Positions 13,043-39,647 of a DNA stretch of 64,000 nucleotides are shown here, piece after piece; the first letter of the stretch is position 1, and each line of letters opens with the position of its first letter. Position numbers and translations under genes: made by a program. The stretch is from an uncultured delta proteobacterium. Lineage in GTDB: Bacteria > Desulfobacterota > Syntrophobacteria > Syntrophobacterales > Syntrophobacteraceae. The notes beneath the pieces are model-generated. The model had not been told where the DNA came from and ran no database searches. It saw only the letters and a list, made by a program, of their open reading frames with translations. The stretch is taken from assembly GCA_963808625.1 (NCBI GenBank), contig CAWEHK010000038.1:1-64000 (forward strand), in the 5' to 3' direction.

Positions 13043-13259
13043 CGAATCAAAACCAAAGGAGGGCGGGTCTTTCAACTTCGTACCCGCAGGGCGGGCACCC
13101 AGGTGGTGGTCAACCTCCGAATCAAAACCAAGGGAGGGCGGGTTTTCCAACCCGCCAGGTGGCTTTTGTCCATACCAGGTTCGTCACTTCCTCCGCAATG
13201 AACCAGCCCGCCAGGTGGTCTCCAGAGTCATCTGCGGCGGGTTGGAAAACCTGCCCTCC
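13043..13259. repeat. REP-like cluster GGAGGGCGGGTTTTCCAACCCGCC (two direct, one inverted copy)
   Basis: cgaatcaaaaccaa(a/g)ggagggcggg occurs twice; inverted ggcgggttggaaaacctgccctcc at ~13236-13259. Confidence 0.75.
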
Positions 13260-13502: not shown

Positions 13503-13655
13503 TGCTTACTTCACCACGAAATACACGAAATATCCGAAAACTCAGCAGGTCAGCAGTGATATATTTCGTGTTTTTCGAGTGTTTCGTGGTTTGAAATGGG
13601 CTCAGAACGAGAGCATGTAATTTCTGGACGGATCTTTAGTCGAAAGGATTTACCT

Positions 13656-16600
13656 ATGGCCAAAGGGCGGCAAGCGAAACCCCAGGACAAAGAACCTGAG
13701 ACTTCCGTTATTGAACAGAGCGTCCGGATCATCACCGTGTTTGTCTCCTCCCCATCCGATACTTCGGCCGAGCGCGCGGTGTTGGAAGAAGTCTGCAAGT
13801 CAATCAACGACACCGACGGGCAGACCGGCGGGTTCCGCTTGGAGCTGTTCCGCTGGGAGCATGACGTGGCGCCAAAGGTCGGCCCCGGGCCGCAACCCGT
13901 TGTCGACGAGCAGACTCCGATCTACAACATCTACCTGGGGATCATGGCTACCCGCTTCGGGACGCCGACGGGTCGTTACGGCAGCGGCACGGAGAAGGAG
14001 TTTCGAGACGCCCTGGAGAGTTGGAAAGAGGCCGGCTCGCCGTGGATCATGTTCTATTTTGACGCCTCTCCAAAACTGACCGGCGATCCAGAACAGGCGA
14101 AACAGTTCGTGCGGGTCTGTAGATTTCGAGCTGAATTGGAGAAGCAGGGGATCTTGGCAACCTACTCGGAAGTGCGCGGCAGTGCCGCCGGATTCTTCGA
14201 GCAAGTCTCGATCCACCTGCGACAGATTGCGCAGCGCCTGCTACAGCAACAGGAACCCGAGCCGGGCCGCAAGCGCAAGAAAACGTGGCGATCAAAACCC
14301 ATCATTCCGCCTGCATACATCTCCTGGCTCCTCGGCTAGTGCGGTGAAGTGGACCTTATGGGGCTGCAGGTCAAACATGGGGCGGGTGTGCGGTTGAACC
14401 AGGTGTACACGCCGCTGGTCACCGCGATGCGACCTGACTGGCAGGGTGCTCCTCGCCGGAAGCGCGAGGAGAGAGCCTTGGTGGAAGGTCGCGAACCCGG
14501 CCGGTTGCTGCTGGATCTGCTGGCTGAGCAGTCGCTGTATGTTTCCGGCGATCCGGGTTCGGGGAAATCCACCTTTTGCCGGTGGGTGACCTGGCTCACG
14601 TGCAACGGCGCCATGCCATCCGTGGATGTGCCGCCGCCGGAACAATACCAGGAGAAATTTCCCGACCCTTTGCGCGGGCGGCTGCCGGTGCTGGTGCGGC
14701 TGCGGGACTTCTGGCCGCATCTCCCGGCTTCCGGTGCGCCGTCAATAGGTCTTGCGGGCCTGGAGCGCGCCCTGGAAAGATGGCTGTCCGAGGAAAAGCC
14801 TCCCGGCCTGGAATGGGTCAACCTGAAGGCTCACCTGGAAAACGGCTCGGCGATGCTGATGCTGGACGGCGTCGATGAAGTCCCGACCGAGCGCAGGGCG
14901 GGTGACGGCGATTGGTATCCGCGCGAAATGCTGCTCGAGGTGCTGGCCGAGGCGATCAAGCGGTGGACCAAAGCGGCAACCGGGTGCTGGTGACCAGCCG
15001 TCCCTACGGCGTGGACGCGAGCCGGCAACAGCGGCTCGGCCTCCTCCATGCTCCCATCCAGGGATTGGACCCGGAGCTGCAGAAGCTCCTGGTGCGCCGC
15101 TGGTTTGTGCGCCTCGACGAAAGCCCGGAGCGCGGCCTGGAAAAAGCCGACGCCATGATCGCTCACCTCCATCGGCGAACGCGCTCTGGATGAACTTGCC
15201 GCCAACCCGCTCCTGCTGACGGCGATGTGCATCATCTACGAGGAAGGCAAACGCCTGCCGGAGGACAAGTACGAGCTCTACAACCGCATCGTGGATACCG
15301 TCCTCCATAAACGCTACCCGGCGGTGAAGGAATCCGTGAGCCAGGTCCGCGGGCGCCTGGCCGCAATTGCCCTGGGCATGCATACCGGTGAAGGTCTGGG
15401 GCAGCAGCGCACCAACCCGGAAGCATCCGCCTCCGATCACGAAATCGACCTGCTGCTTGCAGAAGTACCGCCAGATCGATGGGTCAACGGATGAGGGGCT
15501 CCGGGATACGGTCCATGCGCGGGAGGACCTGCTCTCGAGGTCGGGCCTGCTGGTGCCGCGGGGTGACGGGCGGGCGTCGTTCTATCATCTGTCGTTTCAG
15601 GAGTTCATGGCGGCCGAACGCCTGGTCCTCGAACTTTCGAGAGCCACGGTTGTTCCAGCAGGAGTGTGAGGGCGACGGCTTTCCCAGTCTCCTCCTGGAG
15701 CGGGGGCAGGTTTCAGGCTGGCGGAACACCCTATCGTTTCTGTTCGGCTGCCTCGTGACCAAGTTCAGTCCGGATGTGGGGGCTGGACTCCTCCAGGCCG
15801 TCGTCAACCGCATGGAGATTCCCGAAGTGGACGTTTCCCAACGGGGGCAGACGGGTGGTTTCTGGAACCTGGCAATCGTCCTCGGCGACTGCCTGGAAAT
15901 TCTCGTCGGACGCAAATCAGCGGTGCCGCCGGAATTGCGCGAGTTTTTCCAGGATGTGGTGATGCGCGCCATCGAGCAGGAAATCGCGGTTAAAGATCGG
16001 CATACGCTGGCGGTGGCGTTGGGGCGCTTGGGGGATCCCCGCATTGTCAAGGATTTGCGGGTGCACGGCCATCCCGATGAGCACCCGGGTTACGTGAAGA
16101 TTCCGGCGGGAGATTACTATTACGGTGATGACAAGGAGCGGATTCACATCGATGAGCCGTTCTGGCTGTCGCGCTATCCGGTGACCAATTCGCAGTATGC
16201 GGTGTTCATGGACGAAAAGGGCTATGAAAGGCGCGAATTCTGGTCCGAAGGCGGGTGGCGTTGGCGCGAAAAAGAAAGAGTTCTGGAGCCGAGGTTTTGG
16301 CGTCATCCTGCCTTCAATGCTTCCAACCAGCCGGTGGTCGGGGTCTCGTGGTGGGAAGCGGAGGCTTTTACCAAATGGACCGGGGGAAAACTGCCCACCG
16401 AACGGCAATGGGAGGCGGCGGCGCGGGGTCCGCAGGGCTATGTTTATCCTTGGGGCGATGAGTGGGAGGATGGACTATGCAACAGCATGGAGGCTGGGCT
16501 GGGGGGCACTTCGGCAGTGGGCATATTCCCTCGGGATCGGTCGATGCCGTTCGGGGTGGAAGATATGGCGGGGAATGTGTGGGAGTGGTGTGCAGATGAG

Positions 16601-16856
16601 GTGGCCACGGTCCGGGTGATCCGGGGCGGCAGCTGGGGCTGCTCCGCCAGGGGCTGCCGGGCGGCGGACCGGACGCGGGAACGGGCCGTCCGACCGGGAC
16701 TACGATCTCGGCTTTCGTGTGGCCCCAGTTCCGTCTGGCGGGCAGGCAGGTTCCAGCAAGCCAGAGCGAACGGAGCCTGGAGTGGAGGCCGAGGGGGCGG
16801 AAGTGCGGAGCCCGCCCCCTCGCGCCGGAACGGAAGGCGGAGTGAGCGACAGGTAG
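13656..16856 (+). CDS. DGR target 1: DUF4062 - NACHT/STAND NTPase - FGE-sulfatase-like CLec domain (in-frame TAG at 14337 and indels)
   Basis: VFVSSPSD..AER, YLGIMATRFGTPT..SGTEKEF (DUF4062); GDPGSGKST Walker A and LMLDGVDEV Walker B; NPLLLTAMC; FYHLSFQEF; YPVTNSQY, LPTERQWEAAARG, DMAGNVWEWC, RVIRGGSW. Confidence 0.9.
16603..16734 (+). repeat. DGR variable repeat VR1
   Basis: Aligns to TR 18668-18798. By hand count about 12 substitutions fall at TR adenines (e.g. AAC>GGC, AAC>TGC, AGG>GGG, AAT>GAT), plus a 1-nt insertion near 16673. Confidence 0.95.
16790..16822 (+). promoter_or_regulatory. GC-rich hairpin downstream of VR1/IMH
   Basis: cgagggggcgg-aagtgcggagc-ccgccccctcg, 11-bp stem; same stem follows VR2. 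Confidence 0.75.
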
Positions 16857-17186: not shown

Positions 17187-17678
17187 GTGGCCTTCAAATT
17201 CTTCATAATTCCAGTCCAGGGGTGGGAACATGCCGAGGACGAGCTGAACGCGTTCCTGCGCAACCACAAGGTCCTGGCCGTGGACCGGCGGTGGGTGGAC
17301 CAGGGGGCTAATTCGTTCTGGTCGTTCTGCGTGGATTACCTGGAGCGGGGTGCCGCTGGCGGGCCAGGCTCCCGTCAGCAGAAGGAACGCGAGAAGGTTG
17401 ATTACCGGGAGGTCCTGAGCCCCGAAGACTTCGCGATCTTCGCCAGGCTGCGCGAACTGCGGAAAGAAATCGCCCAGGCGGAAGCGGTTCCGGTTTACAC
17501 TATCTTTACCAACGAACAGTTGGCGCAAATGGTGCAATCGAAAGTGGCTACGAAAGCTGCCCTCGAGGGCATGGCCGGCGTTGGGGACGCGCGGATCGAG
17601 AAATACGGAGCCCGCATTCTGGCATTTTTGCAGCAGGAGTGGAAAGAAACGGGTGAAGCGGGCGGGAAATCTGTTTGA
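17187..17678 (+). CDS. HRDC-domain protein, DGR accessory factor
   Basis: FARLRELRKEIAQAEAVPVYTIFTNEQLAQMV...MAGVGDARIEKYG is an HRDC signature; overlaps the RT start. Confidence 0.88.
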   Translation: MAFKFFIIPVQGWEHAEDELNAFLRNHKVLAVDRRWVDQGANSFWSFCVDYLERGAAGGPGSRQQKEREKVDYREVLSPEDFAIFARLRELRKEIAQAEAVPVYTIFTNEQLAQMVQSKVATKAALEGMAGVGDARIEKYGARILAFLQQEWKETGEAGGKSV

Positions 17679-18668
17679 GCGAGTCATCGCTCGCGACAAC
17701 CTGCGCCTGGCCGTCGCCAGGGCGTTGCGTGGCAAACGGGACCGCGTGGAAGCCCGCCGCTTTGTCGCCCGCCTCGATGATCACCTCGAAAGCATGGCCC
17801 GGGAGCTTTCGGAAGGCCTGTTTCCGGTCGGAAGGTTTTCCCAGTTCGTCATTCACGATCCCAAAGAACGCATCATCACGGCGCCTTGCTTCGCCGAACG
17901 GGTCCTGCACCATGCCGTCATGAACGTCTGCGAGCCCAAGTTTGAACAGTGGCTCATCGATGACACCTACGCCTGCCGCGTCGGCCGCGGCCAAAGCGCG
18001 GCGCTTGTCCCGAGCACAAGAATTTGCACGGCGTTTTCCCTTCTTCCTGAAGATCGACGTCCGCAAGTACTTCGACAGCATCTCCCACGAGACCCTGCTG
18101 TCCCGGCTGCGGTTGCTCTTCAAAGATCGTCGGCTGCTGGACCTCTTCGAGCGGATCGTCCACAGTTTTCGCGGGAACCTTGGGCGGGGACTCCCCATTG
18201 GCAGCCTGACCTCGCAGCACCTGGCCAATTTCTACCTGGGCTGGTTCGACCGCTATGCCAAGGAGACCCTGCGCCTCAAGGGCTACGTCCGCTATATGGA
18301 TGATATGGCGCTTTGGGCCGATTCGGCTGCCACCCTCAAGACCGCCCTCGCCCTTGCCCGCGAACATCTTTGGGCGCAGCTCAGGCTGGAGCTCAAGGAT
18401 TATCCTTACATCAATCGCACGGAACACGGCATGAACTTTCTGGGATGCCGCGTTTTCTCGGACCGAATCACCCTGAATCGAGCGAGTCGCGTGCGCTTCA
18501 GGCGCAAGCTGGCGCCGGCTCGAGCAAGCGTTCCTGAGAGGTGAGATCGATGAGACCGAACTTCAGCGGCGAACGACCTCGCTTGTGGCTTTCACGCGAT
18601 CCGGCGGCGTAAAATCTTGGCATTTCCGGCGCGCAGTGCTACAAAAACTCCCGGTGAGCGACCTTTAG
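17653..18668 (+). CDS. DGR reverse transcriptase (two apparent frameshifts)
   Basis: GTG start MKRAGNLFE; DPKERIITAPCFAERVLHHAV; LKIDVRKYFDSISH; GLPIGSLTSQHLANFYL; YVRYMDD; NFLG; C-terminus ...LQKLPVSDL-TAG at 18666-18668. Confidence 0.95.
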
Positions 18669-18798
18669 GCCACGGACCGGGTGATCCGGGGCGGCAGCTG
18701 GAACAACTCCGCCAGGAACTGCCGTGCGGCGAACCGGAACAGGCACGAGCCGTCCTACCGGAGCGACAATCTCGGCTTCCGCGTGGCCCCAGCTCCGT
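18668..18798 (+). ncRNA. DGR template repeat (TR)
   Basis: AAC-rich copy of the VRs (tgg aac aac tcc gcc agg aac tgc cgt gcg gcg aac cgg aac agg...), outside any target gene and immediately 3' of RT. Confidence 0.93.
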
Positions 18799-18991
18799 GC
18801 ACAAGGTGGATTCGATTTCCATGTCAGCGCGGGTTCGAATGGTAAAGTCAAGCTCCGCGCGCAGGGTGGATGCCCAGCCGGACGGAACCGGCCGCTTTCC
18901 TGCCCCGCTTGGGCGGGCGAAATTAATGTCTGAGCCGTCCCCGTGCTGGTAGCGACCGTGAGCAGCGAGCCGCGAACGCTCGGGGCGGCCT
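18799..18991 (+). ncRNA. Putative structured 3' part of DGR RNA (spacer)
   Basis: Stem-forming segments gccccgc-ttgg-gcgggc and gccgtccccg...cggggcggc followed by ttt; position typical of the priming spacer. Confidence 0.5.
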
Positions 18992-19069
18992 TTCAATTCC
19001 AATGGTGAGATTAAGCAAACCTGTCAGGTTGAAATGTAGCAAACTCATCAGTTCCTGAAGGCAGCAGAG

Positions 19070-19919
19070 ATGAAGACACAACTCCTGAAGGAATGGCTCA
19101 AGGCCAAACATGTGGGGCAGGCTTTCCAGCCTGCCATTCACTGGCCGGAGTTCAGGTCCTTTACTAAGGAAGATCTGGGTGCGGTTGGTTTGTACCAAAG
19201 GAGGTTGCCTCACTGGGAATTGCAGGGTTCCACTTACTTTATCACTTTCAGAGTCCATGAGGGCCTGGGGAGGCCTTTGATCGGCAGCCTGAAAGATCCA
19301 GCCGACCTCCCTCAATTTCCTGCTCAGTCCAGCAAGCTGGAGAGCCAGACTATTACCCCTCAATATGATGATCAGGTTGGCAGGCTGGAAAGCCTGCTCC
19401 ACATAAGCCCGGAGTCCACAGTGTGGGGCAGGCTTTCCAGCCTGCCATCGGCCCAACTATCTTCTGAGGAACTATCCTGCTAACCAGCCATCCCATAACC
19501 AGCCATCCCATAACGAGCCATCTCATATCCAGACATCCTCCATACCGGCAACCATAGTTGAGGAAGCCTTATGGTTTGGCTACAAGAAAGGTATCTTCTG
19601 GATGCTTATGTCATCATGCCCGGACCACGTTCATCTGCTGCTCAGACCCTTGACCAATTGGAGACTTGCCAAAATCCTCAAGGGAATCAAAGGATTCACG
19701 GCAAGGGAGATCAACAGGGTCCTTGGTCGAAAGGGTCCCTTTTGGCAGGAGGAAAGTTTTGACCATTTGGTAAGGAATGATGGGGATTGGCTGGACAAGT
19801 TCGACTATATCCACAAGAATCCAGTGACTGCTGGACTGGTGGAGAGGCCGGAGGATTATCCTTTCAGCAGCTTGTGGCCATGCACAGCAAAGGCAGGCTG
19901 GAGAGTTTACAGCAGATAG
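19070..19919 (+). mobile_element. REP-associated tyrosine transposase (RAYT, Y1 HUH), disrupted
   Basis: RRLPHWELQGSTYFITFR; AYVIMP-DHVHLL (HUH); KGFTAREIN; FWQEESFDHLVR; YIHKNPV.AGLV..PEDYPFSS. Confidence 0.88.
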
Positions 19920-20019
19920 GAAAAGCAGGCTGGAAAGGCTGCTCTACATAAGGGAGTAGCTTTATCGCAGTGCAGGCCAAGATTGTTTACGGCATTGTGT
20001 CTGGAAAGCCTGCCCCACA
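19111..20019. repeat. REP family TGTGGGGCAGGCTTTCCAGCCTGCC, copies in and after the RAYT
   Basis: Copies at ~19111, 19379-19403 (inverted), 19422-19446, 19925-19948 and 20001-20019. Confidence 0.85.
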
Positions 20020-20059
20020 TTCGGGAGTAGCTTTTCGGAAGGGTATTAGGAGGGACCGC

Positions 20060-23000
20060 ATGGTAAAGCCGCCGAAACAGTTCGAGTCATCCGCATCTTT
20101 GTGTCCTCACCGGGGGATGTGGCGGAAGAGCGCGAGGTGCTGGACGAAGTGGTCGCGCGCATCAACCGGACCGATGGTCAAGCCGGGGGTTCGGCTTGAG
20201 GTGTGGAAATGGGAGACACACGTTGTTCCCCAAATCGGCCCGAAACCCCAGGGGGTGGTCGACAACCAGACGCCTGCTCACTATGACATCTACCTGGGCA
20301 TCATGAAGCACCGCTTCGGCACGCCGACGGAGCGATATGGCTCGGGCACCGAGAAGGAGTTCAATGACGCGCTGGAGCGCTGGGGAAAGGAGGGCTCTCC
20401 CTGGGTGCTTTTCTATTTCACTAAGGAAAAGGTGAACCATCATGAGCTGGATGACGGCCAGTACGAACAGTACTGCGGAAGGTTCGCATCAATTCCGCAA
20501 GAAGATTGGAGGAAATGGGGCTTCATGCGGCTTACGAGGGAGTCCGGGGATCGAACGAGGGGTTCTTTGAAAAGGTCGAGGAACATCTGCGGAAGCATCC
20601 TGCAATTGCTGGCGCCTCTTGGGCCCCAGGACGAAGACAAGCCTGTCGCCGATCCCACGGCCTACCTGCGCGATCTCCTCACGAAGACGGAATACATCGA
20701 CATCCGCGGCCTGCAGGTCGGGCAGGAGCGGGCTCATCGATTTCCCATTGAAGAGCTGTACATTTCGCTCACCACGACGCAGGCAGCGAGCCTGACGGCG
20801 ACCAGCCGATGAAAGGCGGGCGCAAAAGGGCGGACCATGGCCCGGAAATGGAACGTGCCCTTCCGCGAAACCCAGGCTTTGCCGCTGCACGAGGCGCTGC
20901 GCCATGAGCGGCTGGTCATAGTTGGCGATCCGGGTGCCGGGAAGACCACCTTCCTGCGCCGGGTTGCGCATGCCCTCTGCCAGACCGAGTTGGGCGACGC
21001 GCCCGATGCGGCCCTGGCCCGTGTCGGGATCAGCGAACGGACGTTTCCCATCCTGGTGCGGCTGAACGAATTGGATGAGCATATCTCGCGCCACCGAAAT
21101 GATCCGGCGGCTCCGACGGGGGAGGTCGCCGGCCTGGCTGCCGCATTACCTGGCGAAGACCAGCCTGGACAACAGACTGGGGGCTCGATGATGCCTTTTT
21201 CCGCCAGCAGCTGGAAGACGGCGGTTGCACCGTGCTGCTGGATGGCCTGGACGAGGCGGCGGATCGTGTTGCCCGCCAGCGACTCTCGCGGTTGATCGAG
21301 AACGTCGGCCCGGACCTATCGCGGTTGCCGCATGGTCGTGACCAGCCGGCCTGCGGGTTATACGGGGGAGGCGATCCTGCCCGATGTCGGGCATGGTCGG
21401 AGGAGCCTCGCCGGCTGGCGAGTTCGCCCGGTTTTCGCCCACGCTCGCATCGACCCGCTGTCCGACCAGGCGGTGGAGACCTTCCTTTCCCGTTGGTGCG
21501 AGGCGCTTTACGGTGAGAGCCCCGAGGCAGCGAAGCGACCACTGCTCGGAGTTGCTTTCGGCACTGAAGGCGCGGCCGGACATCCGCCGCATGGCGCGCA
21601 ATCCGGTGATGTTGACGGCCCTTGCGGTGGTGCACTGGAATGAACGCCGGCTGCCGGAGCAACGGGCCGATCTTTACGAATCGATCATCCGCTGGCTGTC
21701 GCGCTCCCGCGAGCAAAAGCCGGGACGCGAGAAGGCGGAGCGCGCCGTGGTTCTGCTGCAGGAACTGGCGCTGGCCATGCAGGACCATCCCGAAGGCATG
21801 CGCACGGAGGTCTCCAAACGCTGGGCGGCGGAAGCGATTGCCGGCGAATGGACGTCCGGAAAAGTTGACAAAGATGCCATCGCCGTTGCCGAAGCGTTCC
21901 TGGAAGCCGAGGAGCTGGACAGCGGCATTATCGTGGGCCGAGGAGAGAATGTGCGCTTCTGGCACCGAACTTTTCAGGAATTCCTGGCGGCCCGCGCCAT
22001 TGCGGCGCGCCCCGAAGCCGAAGCAGCAGGAGCTGCTGTGGAAATTGCGGCAAGACGCCTGCCCAGGCTCTACCTGCCGGAATGGCGGGAGGTCATCCTG
22101 CTGCTGGCCGGGATTCTTCACCAGCGGGGGCGGGCGACGGTTGATTATCTGGTGAAGACGATGATCAGATCGCGCAGGAGGTGAATGCTACACTGGCTGA
22201 ACAGGCGCGCTGTGCGGGTTTGATCGGCGCCATGCTGAGTGACCTGGCGCCGGTGGGGTATAGCCTCAGGACCACCAATACGAGGAGTTGCTGCATCGGG
22301 TCATGGGCATCTTCGACCGGGAGCGGTCGCAGAGCGTGCCCATCGAAACCCGCATCGAGGCGGCCGACGCTTTGGGGCAGGCGGGCGATACGCGGCTGGA
22401 TTTTCGGCCATCGTGACTACTGGGTGACGATTCCTGCGGGCGAGTTCTGGATGGGGGCGCAGGCCAGTGATCCGAAAGGTCGAAACTACGACTCTGAAGC
22501 ATACGAGGACGAAGCTCCGGTGCACAGGGTGCATTTGGATACCTATCGCATCGCCCGTTATCCGATTACGGTGGGGCAGTATCGGAAGTTTCTTGAGGAT
22601 GATGGATACAAAGAGGAGGATTGGTGGCAGGCGGGTGGATTCGGGAAGTTCTCCGAGCCAGAGAAGTGGGAAGATCAGTTGCAGTATCCCTCGCGCCCGG
22701 TGGTTTCGGTGAGTTGGTATGAAGCGGCGGCGTTTTGCCGGTGGGCCGGTTGCCGGTTGCTCACGGAAGCGGAATGGGAGCGGGCGGCGCGGGGGAGCGA
22801 CGGACGGAGATATCCCTGGGGAAATGAGGATGCTGACCCATCTCGCCTTAATTACAGCGATAGCGACATCGGTCATCCGACGCCGGTCGGCATTTATCCG
22901 CTCGGAAGCACGCCGGAAGGCATTTGCGATCTTGCCGGGAACATCTGGGAATGGTGTGCAGATTGGTATGGGGGTTATCCTGCTGAACGAGTAGCTAACC

Positions 23001-23219
23001 CATCTGGGACCTCAAAAGGCCTCGTACCGGGTGATCCGGGGCGGCAGCTGGTACGATGTCGCCAGGTACTGCCGGGCGGCGGTCCGGCACAGGGACGTGC
23101 CGTCCTACCGGGGCAACTATCTCGGCTTTCGCGTGGCCCCAGTTCCGTCTGGCGGGCAGGCAGGTTCAGGCAGGCCAGAGCGAACGGAGCCTGGAGTGCA
23201 GGCCGAGGGGGCGGAATAG
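20060..23219 (+). CDS. DGR target 2: DUF4062 - NACHT/STAND NTPase - FGE-sulfatase-like CLec domain (frameshifted)
   Basis: YDIYLGIMKHRFGTPTERYGSGTEKEF; GDPGAGKTT; LLDGLDE; NPVMLTALA; FWHRTFQEF; LLTEAEWERAARG; DLAGNIWEWC; RGGSWYDVARYCRAAVRHRDVPSYRGNYLGFRVA. Confidence 0.9.
23018..23148 (+). repeat. DGR variable repeat VR2
   Basis: Gap-free 131-bp alignment to TR; about 10 substitutions at TR adenines (AAC>TAC twice, AAC>GTC, AAC>CAC, GAG>GTG, AAT>TAT). Confidence 0.95.
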
Positions 23220-23236
23220 CGGAGCCCGCCCCCTCG
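23204..23236 (+). promoter_or_regulatory. GC-rich hairpin downstream of VR2/IMH
   Basis: cgagggggcgg-aatagcggagc-ccgccccctcg; the target-2 stop codon lies in the loop. Confidence 0.75.
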
Positions 23237-26818: not shown

Positions 26819-29502
26819 TCATCGCCGGCTTTCCCCATGAGCCGGGGCCGGACCTGGTTGGGCCGGTTCTTTGCCTCCCCGCTGGAGTTGCTCTTTTAGC
26901 GCATGGAGCATTTGGAGGGCGGCCACCGGTGTCAGGTGGTCGATATCGAGCGCGAGGATGCGGTCCTGCAGCCATTCCGACGGAAGGTCTGAAAAGGCTG
27001 AGTTGGAGTCCCGGCTCCCGGTCACGAACGGATCGCACCCGCTTTTTCGCCACCGTGGGCTGGGCGAGAAAAGTGGTCTCACCCTTCTCCAGTTGCACCA
27101 GGATTTCCCTTGCCCGCTCGATGACCTCCTGGGGCAGTCCCGCCAGCTTCGCCACCTGGATGCCATAGCTCCGGTTGGTTCCTCCCGGGATCAGCTTATG
27201 GAAGAAGAGGATCTCATTTTGCCATTCCTTGATGGCGACGTTGAAATTCTTCACGCGGGGCCGGGTGCGGGCCAGGTCCGTCAGTTCGTGATAGTGGGTG
27301 GCGAAGAGCGTCTTCACGCCGACGCCCTGAGGTCGTGCAGGTATTCGGCGACGGCCCAGGCGATGCTCAGCCCGTCGAAGGTGCTGGTGCCGCGGCCGAT
27401 CTCATCCAGGATGATCAGGCTGCGGGGCGTGGCCTGATGGAGGATGTTGGCGCTCTCCTGCATTTCCACCAGGAAGGTGGAGCGGCCGCGGGCGAGGTCA
27501 TCCGCCGCGCCCACCCTGGTGAAGATCCGGTCGACCAGGCCGAGGCGAGCCTCGGATGCGGGCACGAAGCTGCCGATCTGGGCGAGCAGCACGATGAGCG
27601 CAGCCTGCCGGAGGATGGTCGACTTTCCGGCCATGTTGGGCCCGGTGATGATCAGCACCTGCTGGGTTTCCTGATCCAAATCCAGGTCATTGGGAACAAA
27701 CGAGCCGGCCGGCAGGAAATGTTCGATCACCGGGTGCCTGCCGTCCCGAATGACAATGGCGTCACCCTGGTTGATGCGGGGCCGGCAGTAGTCGTTTCGG
27801 GCCGCAACCTCGGCCAGGCCGGCGAGGCAATCCAGCTCGGCGACCCGTTCGGCCATGGCCTGGACGCGCTTGCTGTGGGCGCCGAGGGTGCGGCGCAGTT
27901 CCTCGAACAGGTGCTGCTCCAATTCCAGCCGCTTTTCATCCGCTTCCAGCACCTGCGTCTCGAAGGTCTTGAGCTCTTCGGTGAAGAATCGCTCGGCATT
28001 GACCAGGGTCTGTTTGCGGAAATAGTCCGCGGGCGCCGCTCCCAGGTTGGCTTTCGAGATCTCGATGTAGTAGCCGAAAACCTTGTTGTAGCGGACCTTG
28101 AGCGACGAGATCCCGGTCCGCTGCCGCTCCTGGGTTTCATAGCCGGCCATCCAGCTCCGGGCATCGCGGCTCAAACTGACATAATGATCCAGCTCGGCGT
28201 TGACCCCGGGGCAGATCACCCCGCCGGCGTTGAAGGTGAGCGGAGGCGGATCGGTCAGGGTCGCTTCGAGCAGCTCGGCCACATCGGTCAAATTATCCCA
28301 GGAGGCCGCCAACTCCAGCAGCTGCTTCGCGGTGCAGCCGTGCAGGGTTTCTTTGATGCCGGGCAAAACCTGGAGGGACTTCTTCAGGGCGACGAGGTCG
28401 CGAGGGGTGGCCAGGCCGGCGCTGTTCCTGCCGTTGAGACGCTCGATGTCGTTCACCTTCTCGAGGCTGAGTGCGGATTTGGGTCCGGAAACCGGCCCGT
28501 TCCACCAGTTCGGCAACGGCCTGCTGACGGTTGAGGATCCCGCTCAGATCGAGCAACGGATAGCGCAGCCATTGCTGGAGCTTGCGGCCTCCCATGGGGG
28601 TGCGGGTCTGGTCCACAATCGCCAGGAGGGAGCCTTTGCGCCCCTGAAAGCTGGTGGATTGGAAGATTTCGAGGTTGCGCACGGTGGCTTCATCGAGGAC
28701 CATGTAATCGGAGCGACTGTAGGGAAGCAGTTTCTTGAGGTGGCTGCAGGAGCCGAGAAGGTTCGCCTGCAAATAAGCGAGGATGGCCCCGGCTGCGCGA
28801 ATGCCGGAATCCATAAGGTGCACGCCGAAGCCCTCCAGCGAATGGACCTCGAAATGCCGGGTGAGCCGCTCTTCGGCATGGCGCCGGTCGAAGTCGTCGG
28901 CGATTCAGATAAGTCAAGGTGAGCTCAACGTGCGAGCGCAGCCGGTCGCTCCAGGAATGGTCCTCGTCCTGCGGCAGCAGCACTTCTTTCGGGGAAACGC
29001 GCAGCAGTTCCTCGCGCAGCGTTTCCTCGGAATCCAGCTCGACGAGCCTGAATTCGGCGGTGGAAATGTCGAGATAGGCCAGCCCGAAAGCGTGGTCGCG
29101 ACTTCCCCGGGAAACCGCGGCGAGATAGTTGGGCTGGTTGGACAGCAGGTTCTGGCTGTCCAGAATGAGACCCGGCGTGATGACCCGGGTCACTTCCCGC
29201 CGCACCAGGCCCTTGGCGTGTCTCGGGTCCTCGACCTGGTCGCAGATCGCCACTTTTTTGCCGGCCGCCACCAGTTTGGCAAGGTAGCCTTCGGCCGCGT
29301 GGTAGGGCACCCCGCACATGGGAATGGGGTTGTCGGCCTGCTTGTCGCGCGAGGTGAGCGCGATCTCCAGAATGCCGGCAGCAGCGACGGCGTCGTCCAG
29401 GAACATTTCATAGAAGTCCCCCATCCGATAGAGCAGCAGGGCGTCGGGATACTGCGCCTTGATCTCCAGGTACTGCTGCATCATGGGGGTCGGTTTGTAC
29501 AT
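26819..29502 (-). CDS. mutS: DNA mismatch repair protein MutS (frameshifted)
   Basis: [68 protein letters not shown]. Confidence 0.97.
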
Positions 29503-29504
29503 GA

Positions 29505-29560
29505 TCAGTGCTCAGTGGTCAGTGGTCAGAGGACAGAAGTGGCTAGTGGCTAGTGGCTGG
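29505..29560. repeat. Heptamer tandem repeats (CAGTGGT/TAGTGGC)
   Basis: cagtgct cagtggt cagtggt cagagga ... tagtggc tagtggc. Confidence 0.7.
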
Positions 29561-29855: not shown

Positions 29856-30139
29856 TTGATGGTTGATGGTGGATAGTTGATGGTTGATAGTTGATGGTTG
29901 ATAGTTGATGGTTGATGGGGATGTTGATCGGTGACTGGTTATGAGCTCCAAGCCATGAATGGAGGGGATTAACAGTCTTTCCTTTCGGGAATGGTATATA
30001 TTGCCCTGGGGTTCGACTCCAAAAGGCCGAGACCAAGCATCGAAAACCAACAGCCACGAACCATGAACCATGAGCCATTTTGTCCATCAACCATCAACCA
30101 TCAACCATCAACCATCAACTATCAACCATCAACCATCAA
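29856..30139. repeat. Inverted heptamer arrays (TTGATGG)n ... (CCATCAA)n
   Basis: Array at 29856-29918 and its reverse complement at 30083-30139, in the divergent mutS/uvrA intergenic region. Confidence 0.85.
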
Positions 30140-30162
30140 CATCTCTAAAAGGAGCCAATCGT

Positions 30163-36513
<6,351 letters not shown>

Positions 36514-37700: not shown

Positions 37701-39647
37701 ATGAAATCCATGTTTCATTTTCAAAAACCCAATAAGAAAAGTCCCTCATGGAAGAGAGGCTTGGCGCTGGTGTCTGGGACCATGCTGGCGTTAACTCTAG
37801 TGAGCGCTCTGTCCACTATGGCTCACAATTCCGCATGGGCGAACTCATCAAATGACTGTACGATTTACCGCGAGGTCTTCCCTATTCTCAACACCGGAGG
37901 GACCACCCCCAAGGACATCGTCTTCATCCAGAAATGGTACGGGGAGCAACATGGCAGCGCCATTGTCGACGCCGCCAGTCAGGATCTCCAGCGATTGGAT
38001 AACGGGCTGGCGCCGGAAATGCAGCCGGTCGATTCGAACCCCGTCGGGAATCTGGTCCCGAACACGGGCGGCGCCTTCTACTCGCCAAGCGCGGTTGCGG
38101 GCATCTACATTTTTACGGATGAGTTCAGTGCGGACGTCTCGACGCTGCGCAGGGTGCGTTTCGACTCCCGCAACAACGGTTGTTCGACCTTCGTGCAGCA
38201 GAACTCAACAAGCTGCCAGAAGGTCTATTACGACTCACCGACCAACTCGCAGCTCAACTTTGACCCCGCGGCGCAATCCGCCATGCATGTCGCGTTGCGG
38301 ATCGGCACCACGTGGTACATCGCCGAGCAGGTCCTGGAGCAGTCCGCTTACAACCCTGCCACCACCCCTGGAGGCGACCCAAAGGACCCGATCTGGCAAA
38401 CCCATACCTTTGATTTCGCAGGAAAGACGTTCTTGATCGCCAACAGCTACGACGAGGCCCCTGGCGGTGAGTGCGAGAGCACGGTCCCCAACTGCCTGCC
38501 ACGCGAGAACGGACCGTCCGGACAGACTCTCCCGTTGAGCGGCACAGTCAACGGCATCGGCATCTGGATCGAGAAGAACCAACCGGCACCGAGGCTCCCG
38601 AGCGGAACCTCCGCGACGCTGCGCATTGACAATTTCGAGGTCCGCTCTGACGTTTGTGACGACGGCAATCCTTGCACCGCCGACAGCTGCAACCCAACGA
38701 CGGGTGAATGTGTGTACACACCGGTCAACGTGGATGACAACAACGCCTGCACCACGGACGCCTGCGATCCGGCGACCGGTAATATCAGCCACACCCCCAT
38801 CAACTGCGACGACAACAACGCGTGTACCGCCGACAGCTGCAACCCAACGACGGGTGAATGTGTGTACACACCGGTCAACGTGGATGACAACAACGCCTGC
38901 ACCACGGACGCCTGCGATCCGGCGACCGGCATCAGCCACACCCCCGTCAACTGCGACGACAACAACGCGTGTACCAACGACAGTTGCGATCCAGCGACGG
39001 GCTGCACGCACACACCGGTCAACGTGGATGACAACAACGTCTGCACCACGGACGCCTGCGATCCGGCGACCGGCATCAGCCACACCCCCGTCACTTGCGA
39101 CGACAAAAACGCGTGTACAACGGACAGTTGTGATGCGGTGTTGGGATGCGTGTACACCCCGATCTCCTGCACCGACGGAAACGCCTGTACGAACGACACG
39201 TGCGATCCTGCGTCGGGCTGCGTGTACACGCCGGTGTCCTTGATCTGCGACATCACGGCACCCGAAAAGGTGGACTTCGGCTCCACGGGGAACGTGGCAT
39301 CCACGACACCCGGGTATGCCCAATACCAGTGGGTGATCTACGTGGATGATTTGAGCAACCCGGATCCGTCTCTCATCACGGCGGGACAGAACACCCAGCA
39401 GATCACCTTCAGCGCGCCGGCATCGTTCACGGTCCTCAAGATCGGCGTAGTGGCGACAACAGACCAGGGATGTCAGTGTATCAATGATCCGGGCGTCTCA
39501 GGCGACCCGAAAGAAGGGCATGACGTGTACCCCAATCAGGCTATTCCTGTGCCGACCCTTTCCGAGCGAGGTGTGATCCTTTTCCTGCTGCTCCTGGGAG
39601 TGACGGCAATTGTGACACTGCGTCGGAGAGGTCATGTTGAACGCTAA
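37701..39647 (+). CDS. Secreted Cys-rich repeat protein with IPTL-CTERM-like sorting signal
   Basis: Signal peptide; eight ~24-aa (C/V)DDNNACTxDxCDPxxGxxxTP repeats; C-terminal IPVPTLSERGVILFLLLLGVTAIVTLRRR. Confidence 0.85.
   Translation: MKSMFHFQKPNKKSPSWKRGLALVSGTMLALTLVSALSTMAHNSAWANSSNDCTIYREVFPILNTGGTTPKDIVFIQKWYGEQHGSAIVDAASQDLQRLDNGLAPEMQPVDSNPVGNLVPNTGGAFYSPSAVAGIYIFTDEFSADVSTLRRVRFDSRNNGCSTFVQQNSTSCQKVYYDSPTNSQLNFDPAAQSAMHVALRIGTTWYIAEQVLEQSAYNPATTPGGDPKDPIWQTHTFDFAGKTFLIANSYDEAPGGECESTVPNCLPRENGPSGQTLPLSGTVNGIGIWIEKNQPAPRLPSGTSATLRIDNFEVRSDVCDDGNPCTADSCNPTTGECVYTPVNVDDNNACTTDACDPATGNISHTPINCDDNNACTADSCNPTTGECVYTPVNVDDNNACTTDACDPATGISHTPVNCDDNNACTNDSCDPATGCTHTPVNVDDNNVCTTDACDPATGISHTPVTCDDKNACTTDSCDAVLGCVYTPISCTDGNACTNDTCDPASGCVYTPVSLICDITAPEKVDFGSTGNVASTTPGYAQYQWVIYVDDLSNPDPSLITAGQNTQQITFSAPASFTVLKIGVVATTDQGCQCINDPGVSGDPKEGHDVYPNQAIPVPTLSERGVILFLLLLGVTAIVTLRRRGHVER

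Follow-up and report, generated by a model that had tools for sequence, protein, structure and literature searches.

Adenine losses in the template repeat of a natural chromosomal DGR suggest that the template was overwritten

The window, that is, the whole stretch of 64,000 nucleotides that was analysed (positions 1 to 64,000 of contig CAWEHK010000038.1 in assembly GCA_963808625.1, from an uncultured delta proteobacterium of the Syntrophobacteraceae), carries a cellular, chromosomal DGR composed of an HRDC gene, a reverse transcriptase (RT), a template repeat (TR) and two NACHT/FGE-lectin targets (Table 1). The genome assembly comprises 4.8 Mb in 54 contigs and is 84.6% complete. The RT matches PF00078, and its homologues at 60-74% identity adjoin TR/VR pairs. 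The TR is 83-86% identical to VR1 and VR2. The FGE-sulfatase domains of the two targets scored 3e-42 and 1.6e-50; the NACHT matches were weak and lay on frameshifted pieces. Three further VRs of this TR's family were found elsewhere in the assembly, namely a close copy, VR3, on contig C37 and two that have diverged more, on C12 and C33. The IS200-like remnant contains palindromic repeats at 19107 and 19418, which occur again at 13128, 23445 and 62995.

Table 1. Features of the DGR locus (positions in the window)
Feature	Position	Strand	Remarks
Target gene 1	13596..16745	+	In frameshifted pieces; DUF4062-like head and NACHT (both below cut-off), FGE-sulfatase/C-lectin domain with VR1
VR1	16603..16734	+	Located at the 3' end of target 1; mismatched at 4 ex-adenine TR sites; 1-nt insertion
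Inverted repeat 3' of VR1	16790..16822	+	11 bp; predicted target hairpin; none downstream of TR
HRDC-domain accessory gene	17187..17678	+	PF00570, 4.5e-18
DGR reverse transcriptase	17653..18667	+	YMDD; two +1 frameshifts, near 18004 and 18515
TR	18668..18798	+	Begins directly after RT stop; 5/11 core AAC codons altered at adenine
Tract with four of the five adenine losses	18744..18767	+	Codons CAC, TAC, AGC, GAC
IMH*-type hexamer, copy 1	18792..18797	+	Native TR end, contiguous with VR-matching sequence; TR-type C, VRs have T
60-nt insertion relative to homologues	18798..18857	+	Repeats TR end and spacer start; terminates in second IMH*-type hexamer (18852-18857)
Conserved spacer RNA region	18858..18995	+	Contains, at 18883-18888, a hexamer exactly complementary to the VR IMH hexamer
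IS200-like (Y1 transposase) gene	19070-19919		In pieces; between spacer and target 2
Target gene 2	19970..23219	+	In frameshifted pieces; paralogous head, NACHT (below cut-off), FGE-sulfatase/C-lectin domain with VR2
VR2	23018..23148	+	Located at the 3' end of target 2; mismatched at 5 ex-adenine TR sites
Inverted repeat 3' of VR2	23204..23236	+	11 bp

By target layout, rather than by RT tree, the locus appears to match clade 5D. In the STAND NTPase (NACHT/nSTAND1)-CLec DGRs of that clade, such as DGR 3 and DGR 6 of Thiohalocapsa PB-PSB1, paralogous targets with NACHT and FGE-type lectin domains likewise flank the RT and TR, and remote targets and degenerate loci occur in the same genome (PMC10907252, cited, like the other publications compared here, from the accessible part of its text). 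According to that text a TR remains unaltered, whereas the one in the window lacks five core adenines and is followed by a duplicated spacer start. The position of the HRDC gene next to the RT is shared with the HRDC-containing DGRs, Architecture C of Wu et al. (PMC5758913). In that study, non-A differences between TR and VR, present in 86 of 372 DGRs, were ascribed to RT infidelity, integration errors or independent mutation rather than to a loss of TR adenines; those of the window fall on ex-adenine sites. As in the DGR of Bordetella phage BPP-1, the TR is followed by a spacer with a primer segment, here a predicted one, favouring IMH over IMH*, and a hairpin lies 3' of the VR (PMC3240598, PMC5703328, bioRxiv 10.1101/2023.10.23.563531). 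The BPP-1 DGR has Avd, a phage tail-fibre target, an invariant TR and a single IMH*, whereas the window DGR has HRDC and a duplicated IMH*.

Indel noise is high in this assembly, with single-base frameshifts found four times in about 2.6 kb of mutS (26850-29520, minus strand, about 8 kb from the DGR) and twice in the RT, and with 1-nt indels in VR1, VR3 and VR5. Since this is so, the RT is likely intact and its two frameshifts assembly noise. Substitution noise is low: private changes affect 61 of 1,630 mutS sites (3.7%, vs 4.4-8.2% in four relatives), and 82 of 82 family-invariant RT residues are intact. The codon-positioned substitutions discussed below are unlike the indel noise, as had been remarked before. 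A broken mutS as the cause of leaky recombination was unsupported, since the mutS frameshifts resemble assembly noise. A second, complete-looking DGR lies at C43:95600-93500 (minus strand), with an Avd-like gene (assigned by eye), a TR 5' of the RT and two VRs; this AAC-rich TR shows 0 and 1 non-A mismatches to its two VRs and so obeys the adenine rule.

Homologous TRs were taken from 158 loci of related RTs (the best 80 plus 78 of larger match sets), which gave 141 TR candidates, 138 of them in register and 124 distinct. An earlier note on this DNA had listed six TR codons as lacking an A while the copies vary there, and had derived all of them from an ancestral AAC. The bases and coordinates of the six triplets were all right (the alignment of VR1 needs a 1-nt gap near 16679), as were the three adenines described as lost from the TR and retained in a VR (18744 and 18763 in VR1, 18765 in VR2); a fourth is retained in the remote VR on contig C37. 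The varying position is indeed non-A in the TR, although one A is left in five of the six codons. The ancestral AAC stands for five codons (18675, 18744, 18756, 18762 and 18765), which are AAC in 100, 115, 105, 111 and 106, respectively, of the 124 TRs from the best 80 + 78 RT matches and in the TR of the closest RT relative among the loci sampled (73% identity). It is less well supported for codon 18708 (TCC), which is AAC in just 49 of the 124 homologous TRs and GAC in that closest relative. Because VR1 (TCC) and VR3 (TCT) agree with the TR at 18708, this codon, which looks like an older state and a weaker case, was set aside. In all, the TR departs from AAC at the first or second position of 5 of its 11 core codons (18675, 18744, 18756, 18763 and 18765). 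Ordinary non-A differences, overlooked before, were found at 18725 (T vs G in VR1-3; A in 4 of 124 homologous TRs) and 18779 (C vs T in VR1 and VR2), with single third-position changes besides.

We defined as ex-A those TR positions that are non-A in the window but for which 50% or more of the homologous TRs have an A, so that what was once adenine is established without use of the window's own VRs. Nine positions fall in this class. VR1-3 vary at 7 of the 9, compared with 5 of the 77 other non-A TR positions (Fisher test; P = 5e-6); with codon 18708 left out, the values are 5 of 7 and 4 of 76 (P = 8e-5). Mismatches facing an A of the present TR number 13 of 20 in VR1 and 9 of 17 in VR2, rising to 17 of 20 and 14 of 17 once family-A positions count as A. 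Clustering of the losses within 18744-18767 was not significant (P = 0.09). This analysis confirmed that the departure from the adenine rule, in a DGR of known kind, is real and statistically strong.

The number of altered core codons in the 124 homologous TRs (best 80 + 78 RT matches) was 0 in 59, 1 in 48, 2 in 8, 3 in 4, 4 in 3 and 7 in 2. The two TRs with seven (L175 and L135) were dropped as VR/TR chimeras because their 3' ends are VR-type. In the 122 retained from these matches the maximum was four, vs five in the window TR, and 63 lack one or more core adenines. In 60 related genomes there was no near copy of the window TR. Seven same-genus genomes held no close relative of the window DGR, one of the seven having an RT match (E ≤ 1e-30) at 33% identity, and the ancestral TR was therefore reconstructed from RT relatives at 40-73% identity; an RT at E ≤ 1e-60 was present in 3 of 400 genomes of the phylum, at 45-46% identity. 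In the core codons of the family as a whole, adenine loss did not exceed third-position change (75 and 42 vs 116). Pairs of sister TRs (10 independent pairs, RT nucleotide identity ≥78%) accumulated 5 core-A and 59 third-position changes, whereas the window TR differs from its own VRs by 5 core-A and 2 third-position changes (P = 4e-4 against the sister pairs, with the same trend at lower cut-offs). On the least favourable count, in which all third-position VR differences are charged to the TR, the ratio is 5 to 5 (P = 0.003). Since the sister-pair ratio differs and the family has no general excess of adenine loss, the window TR is an outlier, and ordinary TR divergence was rejected as its explanation.

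At the five codons, VR1-3 differ from the new base of the TR in 9 of 13 scorable cells. This is close to the 9.7 expected of VRs templated by an all-A TR under the VR spectrum of the family, so VR1-3 predate the adenine losses of the TR. Mismatches to the TR occur at 4 of 9 ex-A and 3 of 77 other sites in VR1, at 5 of 9 and 3 of 77 in VR2, and at 2 of 9 (with two more sites deleted) and 2 of 75 in VR3. Among 104 homologous TR/VR pairs, from which those with more than 20% non-A mismatch were left out as non-cognate, 73 had no non-A mismatch at all, and mismatches fell on 13 of 378 ex-A sites vs 83 of 7,697 others. Partly eroded TRs normally keep serving as templates: in five genomes, drawn from the 15 retained TRs with at least two altered codons, 15 of 16 cognate VRs (no more than six other mismatches) carry the non-A bases of their TR. 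For this reason, either the window TR eroded recently or homing to its VRs has stopped. The progressive fixation of target residues that the earlier note had foreseen is thus seen in those five genomes, but in the window the VRs do not track the eroded TR. A later stage of erosion is represented by L055:10999-11135, a TR altered at four core codons and matched exactly by the VR next to it, with one lost A still kept by a remote VR (L188). No donor VR was found among the five assembled ones: the TR's CAC and AGC codons are in none of them and TAC is shared by VR2 only; four of the five new TR codons have no match in any assembled VR at the same position.

The direction of homing may be read from the ends of the repeats. 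IMH and IMH* differ by one base in the window, T in all five VRs and C in the TR. Across 62 loci, a hexamer of the spacer, in most cases 18-36 nt past the end of the TR, complements the VR end perfectly 41 times and the TR end 0 times (permutation control: mean 9.3, maximum 19; the related loci are not independent). It covaries with the VR IMH hexamer, for example in L023, L073, L099 and L108, a covariation that lends family-wide sequence support to primer-IMH pairing as the putative direction signal; by analogy with BPP-1, hexamer 18883-18888 is predicted to be the primer segment. For BPP-1, an RNA primer has been proposed to pair better with IMH than with IMH* (PMC5703328), and a template-primer duplex has been described (bioRxiv 10.1101/2023.10.23.563531). 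A conserved helix beside the primer was unsupported (21 of 35 loci vs a permutation mean of 21.3). The inverted repeats 3' of VR1 and VR2 had z scores of -2.5 and -2.6, and a VR-type 11-bp hairpin is absent downstream of the TR. Because the IMH*-type base is kept and this hairpin is missing, the TR has not been turned into a regular target, and any homing onto it would be a leak. An occasional leak is plausible, since in this family the spacer primer separates VR from TR by 1-2 hexamer bases plus the downstream hairpin. In 2004, Doulatov et al. reportedly made the BPP-1 TR variable by swapping the IMH into it.

Directly behind the TR, the 60-nt insertion matches the TR end and spacer start at 19 of 23 nt with a 60-nt offset; the best value among 110 homologous loci was 14 of 23, and none of these 110 TR loci has the duplication. 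Through the insertion, the native IMH* lies 85 nt instead of 25 nt from the primer hexamer, and the 25-nt distance is now that of the second IMH* copy. No match to its source was found in the genome, the homologous loci, viral contigs or Rfam, and a new target hairpin was ruled out (z = 0.29). RNA folding of a short segment favoured IMH* copy 1 (0.75), but the duplex was poorly predicted in most of 8 homologue controls, and the result was therefore not used to choose between the copies. The most eroded TR is the only one with the duplication, a single case that suggests a link between the two. The insertion could have stalled VR homing, could have redirected cDNA onto the TR, or could be tolerated. 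A bolder and rather improbable scheme is that, with the second IMH* at the normal 25-nt primer distance, reverse transcription starts 60 nt too far downstream and yields cDNA colinear with the TR locus and with no VR, giving a self-targeting DGR with frozen VRs and a template that burns its own adenines. If true, an insertion this small would turn retrohoming around and give a bacterial immune-sensor diversifier a natural off-switch.

Overwriting of the TR at its adenines is well supported and fits these data best. We place slightly on the probable side the explanation that mutagenized cDNA went into the DNA of the TR rather than into a VR and so overwrote the five core adenines. The template of this cDNA would have been RNA of the TR itself or of an unassembled, nearly identical TR, and the cDNA would have entered as one or two recent patches after the last rewrite of VR1-3. 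The next round of homing would then fix bases at five codons and shrink the sensor repertoire, resembling the homologues whose VRs follow a partly eroded TR. With 5 of 27 adenines lost, a single RT pass at 30% error, the rate given in the DGRec preprint (bioRxiv 10.1101/2025.03.24.644984), is a fitting source (binomial probability 0.08), and a full-length VR donor at 58% is excluded (3e-5). Against cDNA overwriting stand the T vs G difference at 18725, which adenine loss does not explain unless the site was once A, the reliance on a single assembly and, for the ancestral TR, on RT relatives of no more than 73% identity, the lack of a RecT family match in the assembly, the IMH*-type base and lack of a VR-type hairpin at the TR, and losses that are not significantly clustered. 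A fusion of TR and VR by deletion was ruled out by the TR-type 3' end and spacer that the TR keeps. The earlier proposal that cDNA homed back onto the TR is in line with this result, but it had left aside VR-to-TR gene conversion, which gives the same signature.

Such a conversion, the main rival, would have acted at the DNA level and copied a short tract of about 18744-18767 from an unassembled or lost VR into the TR, with 18675 as a separate event. The tract is VR-like, TAC, GAC and AGC being among the commonest VR codons; RT-independent TR-VR recombination is mentioned in the accessible part of the DGRec preprint; and junctions of a TR/VR crossover type, perhaps misassemblies, occur in 4 of 141 homologous loci from the best 80 + 78 RT matches (L087, L117, L135 and L175). 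A donor could also be hidden by the incompleteness of the assembly, but none of the five assembled VRs fits, and a double crossover keeping the TR-type 3' end would be needed in addition to the second event. The probability of 4 losses among 11 is 0.22 at the cDNA rate vs 0.09 at the VR rate, a weak preference. Taken together, we regard conversion as unlikely. The other suggestion of the earlier note, a second master TR acting in trans, found no support in the 84.6%-complete assembly, where blastn (word size 7), a motif scan and an AAC-density scan returned no second copy of the TR, where a spacer search gave no second spacer, its pattern matches staying at control level, and where the RT family search returned no second cognate RT (a group II intron-like RT on C36, an unrelated RT on C54 and the different DGR on C43). 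A pristine TR outside the assembly, with a local TR disabled by the insertion and decaying by ordinary mutation, would suit the all-A template that VR1-3 fit. Trans activity has been published (PMC10907252), the assembly lacks 15% of the genome, the six copies of a second VR family are without an assembled TR, and the L057 genome holds five further TR-like copies of the window TR's family (L208-L213), some partly eroded. Yet neutral decay should spread over all bases, and 5 of 27 A vs at most 2 of 81 non-A positions were lost (P = 0.01), while the local spacer motifs are intact; we consider this version quite improbable. A second TR explains the VRs and not the adenine-specific loss in the local TR; if cDNA of the second TR had homed onto the local one, that loss would be accounted for too, but by the mechanism proposed above acting in trans.

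The remaining candidates fare worse. An artefact of error-prone long-read assembly, through base-call errors or mixed reads at the repeat, would draw on the frameshift noise of mutS, the RT and the VRs, but the low substitution noise, the 0 and 1 non-A mismatches between the AAC-rich TR of the second DGR in the same assembly and its VRs, and the four new TR codons that match no assembled VR make it very unlikely. Slightly less credible than the artefact is a TR swapped in from a gradually eroded sister DGR with the 60-nt insertion as junction scar: the duplicated spacer start does differ from the second copy at 4 of 23 nt and two non-A differences are common to several VRs, but a sister TR with 5 core-A differences should show many third-position ones (5 to 59) where 2 were seen, and the sequence 5' of the second copy does not match VR ends. 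Least probable of all are TR point mutations selected for fixing well-adapted target residues. Theory predicts such adenine loss in stable environments (bioRxiv 10.64898/2026.02.18.706561), and the VRs of the five genomes with partly eroded TRs follow them in 15 of 16 cases, but in the window the VRs do not carry the TR's new bases (9 of 13 mismatched), so that no such benefit has been delivered.

cDNA overwriting of the TR has a counterpart in engineered systems. In DGRec and related E. coli DGRs, cDNA overwrites the TR and erases its adenines (bioRxiv 10.1101/2025.03.24.644984, 10.64898/2026.07.21.739853), and the accessible text of the latter preprint sets this self-overwriting against natural DGRs. 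The premise that a TR is normally invariant holds for natural DGRs as published and not for engineered ones, where self-mutagenesis is reported. The changes in the window TR fit the adenine-only pattern of DGRec, and an RT-dependent route would be the corresponding cause here. DGRec-type systems need RecT and suppressed mismatch repair, whereas this DGR is a natural locus in an 84.6%-complete assembly without a RecT family match (PF03837). No report of TR overwriting in a natural DGR was found in the accessible literature; a term look-up in the accessible texts of PMC12875486, PMC8144416 and bioRxiv 10.1101/2024.11.15.621889 did not find it either. Current theory, as far as its accessible text goes, models TR adenine loss by point mutation only (bioRxiv 10.64898/2026.02.18.706561). 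It is the one-way rule from TR to VR that allows DGRs to diversify without limit. If the window DGR, a natural chromosomal one, has been caught shortly after a rewrite of its template, with VRs that record the older one, then the rule can fail, and a way in which templates lose adenines suggests itself. Rare overwriting could be a route of template evolution and DGR death, since 63 of 122 homologous TRs (best 80 + 78 RT matches), about half, lack one or more core adenines and VRs follow the new base in five genomes. With its one-base IMH/IMH* difference and its natural IMH* duplication, the locus offers a direct test of homing direction.

Several further features were observed. The second VR family lies at C43:143930, 62508 and 58010, C30:8609, C37:140739 and C50:60937; neither a TR nor a cognate RT for it was found in the assembly, which has only an HRDC remnant at C43:61383. 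The RT on C54 (90523-91912), unrelated to the DGR RT, is near a contig end in a frameshifted long gene. At L087:5863-8666, a 2.8-kb duplication opens with a copy that is VR-like in its 5' half, which follows target-gene sequence, and TR in its 3' half and flank, either a VR/TR crossover or a misassembly. At L117:1951-2090, L135:1258-1400 and L175:2390-2655, the sequence after the RT is TR in its 5' part and changes to VR type in its 3' part and flank; these are reciprocal TR/VR junctions or short-read chimeras. Elsewhere in the window, 7-nt tandem-repeat arrays (29856-30140, 31002-31179 and 33457-33610), some of them inverted pairs, surround genes with ABC-ATPase motifs (UvrA-like, by eye), and repeats of 72-75 nt at 38655-39225 encode cysteine-rich units.
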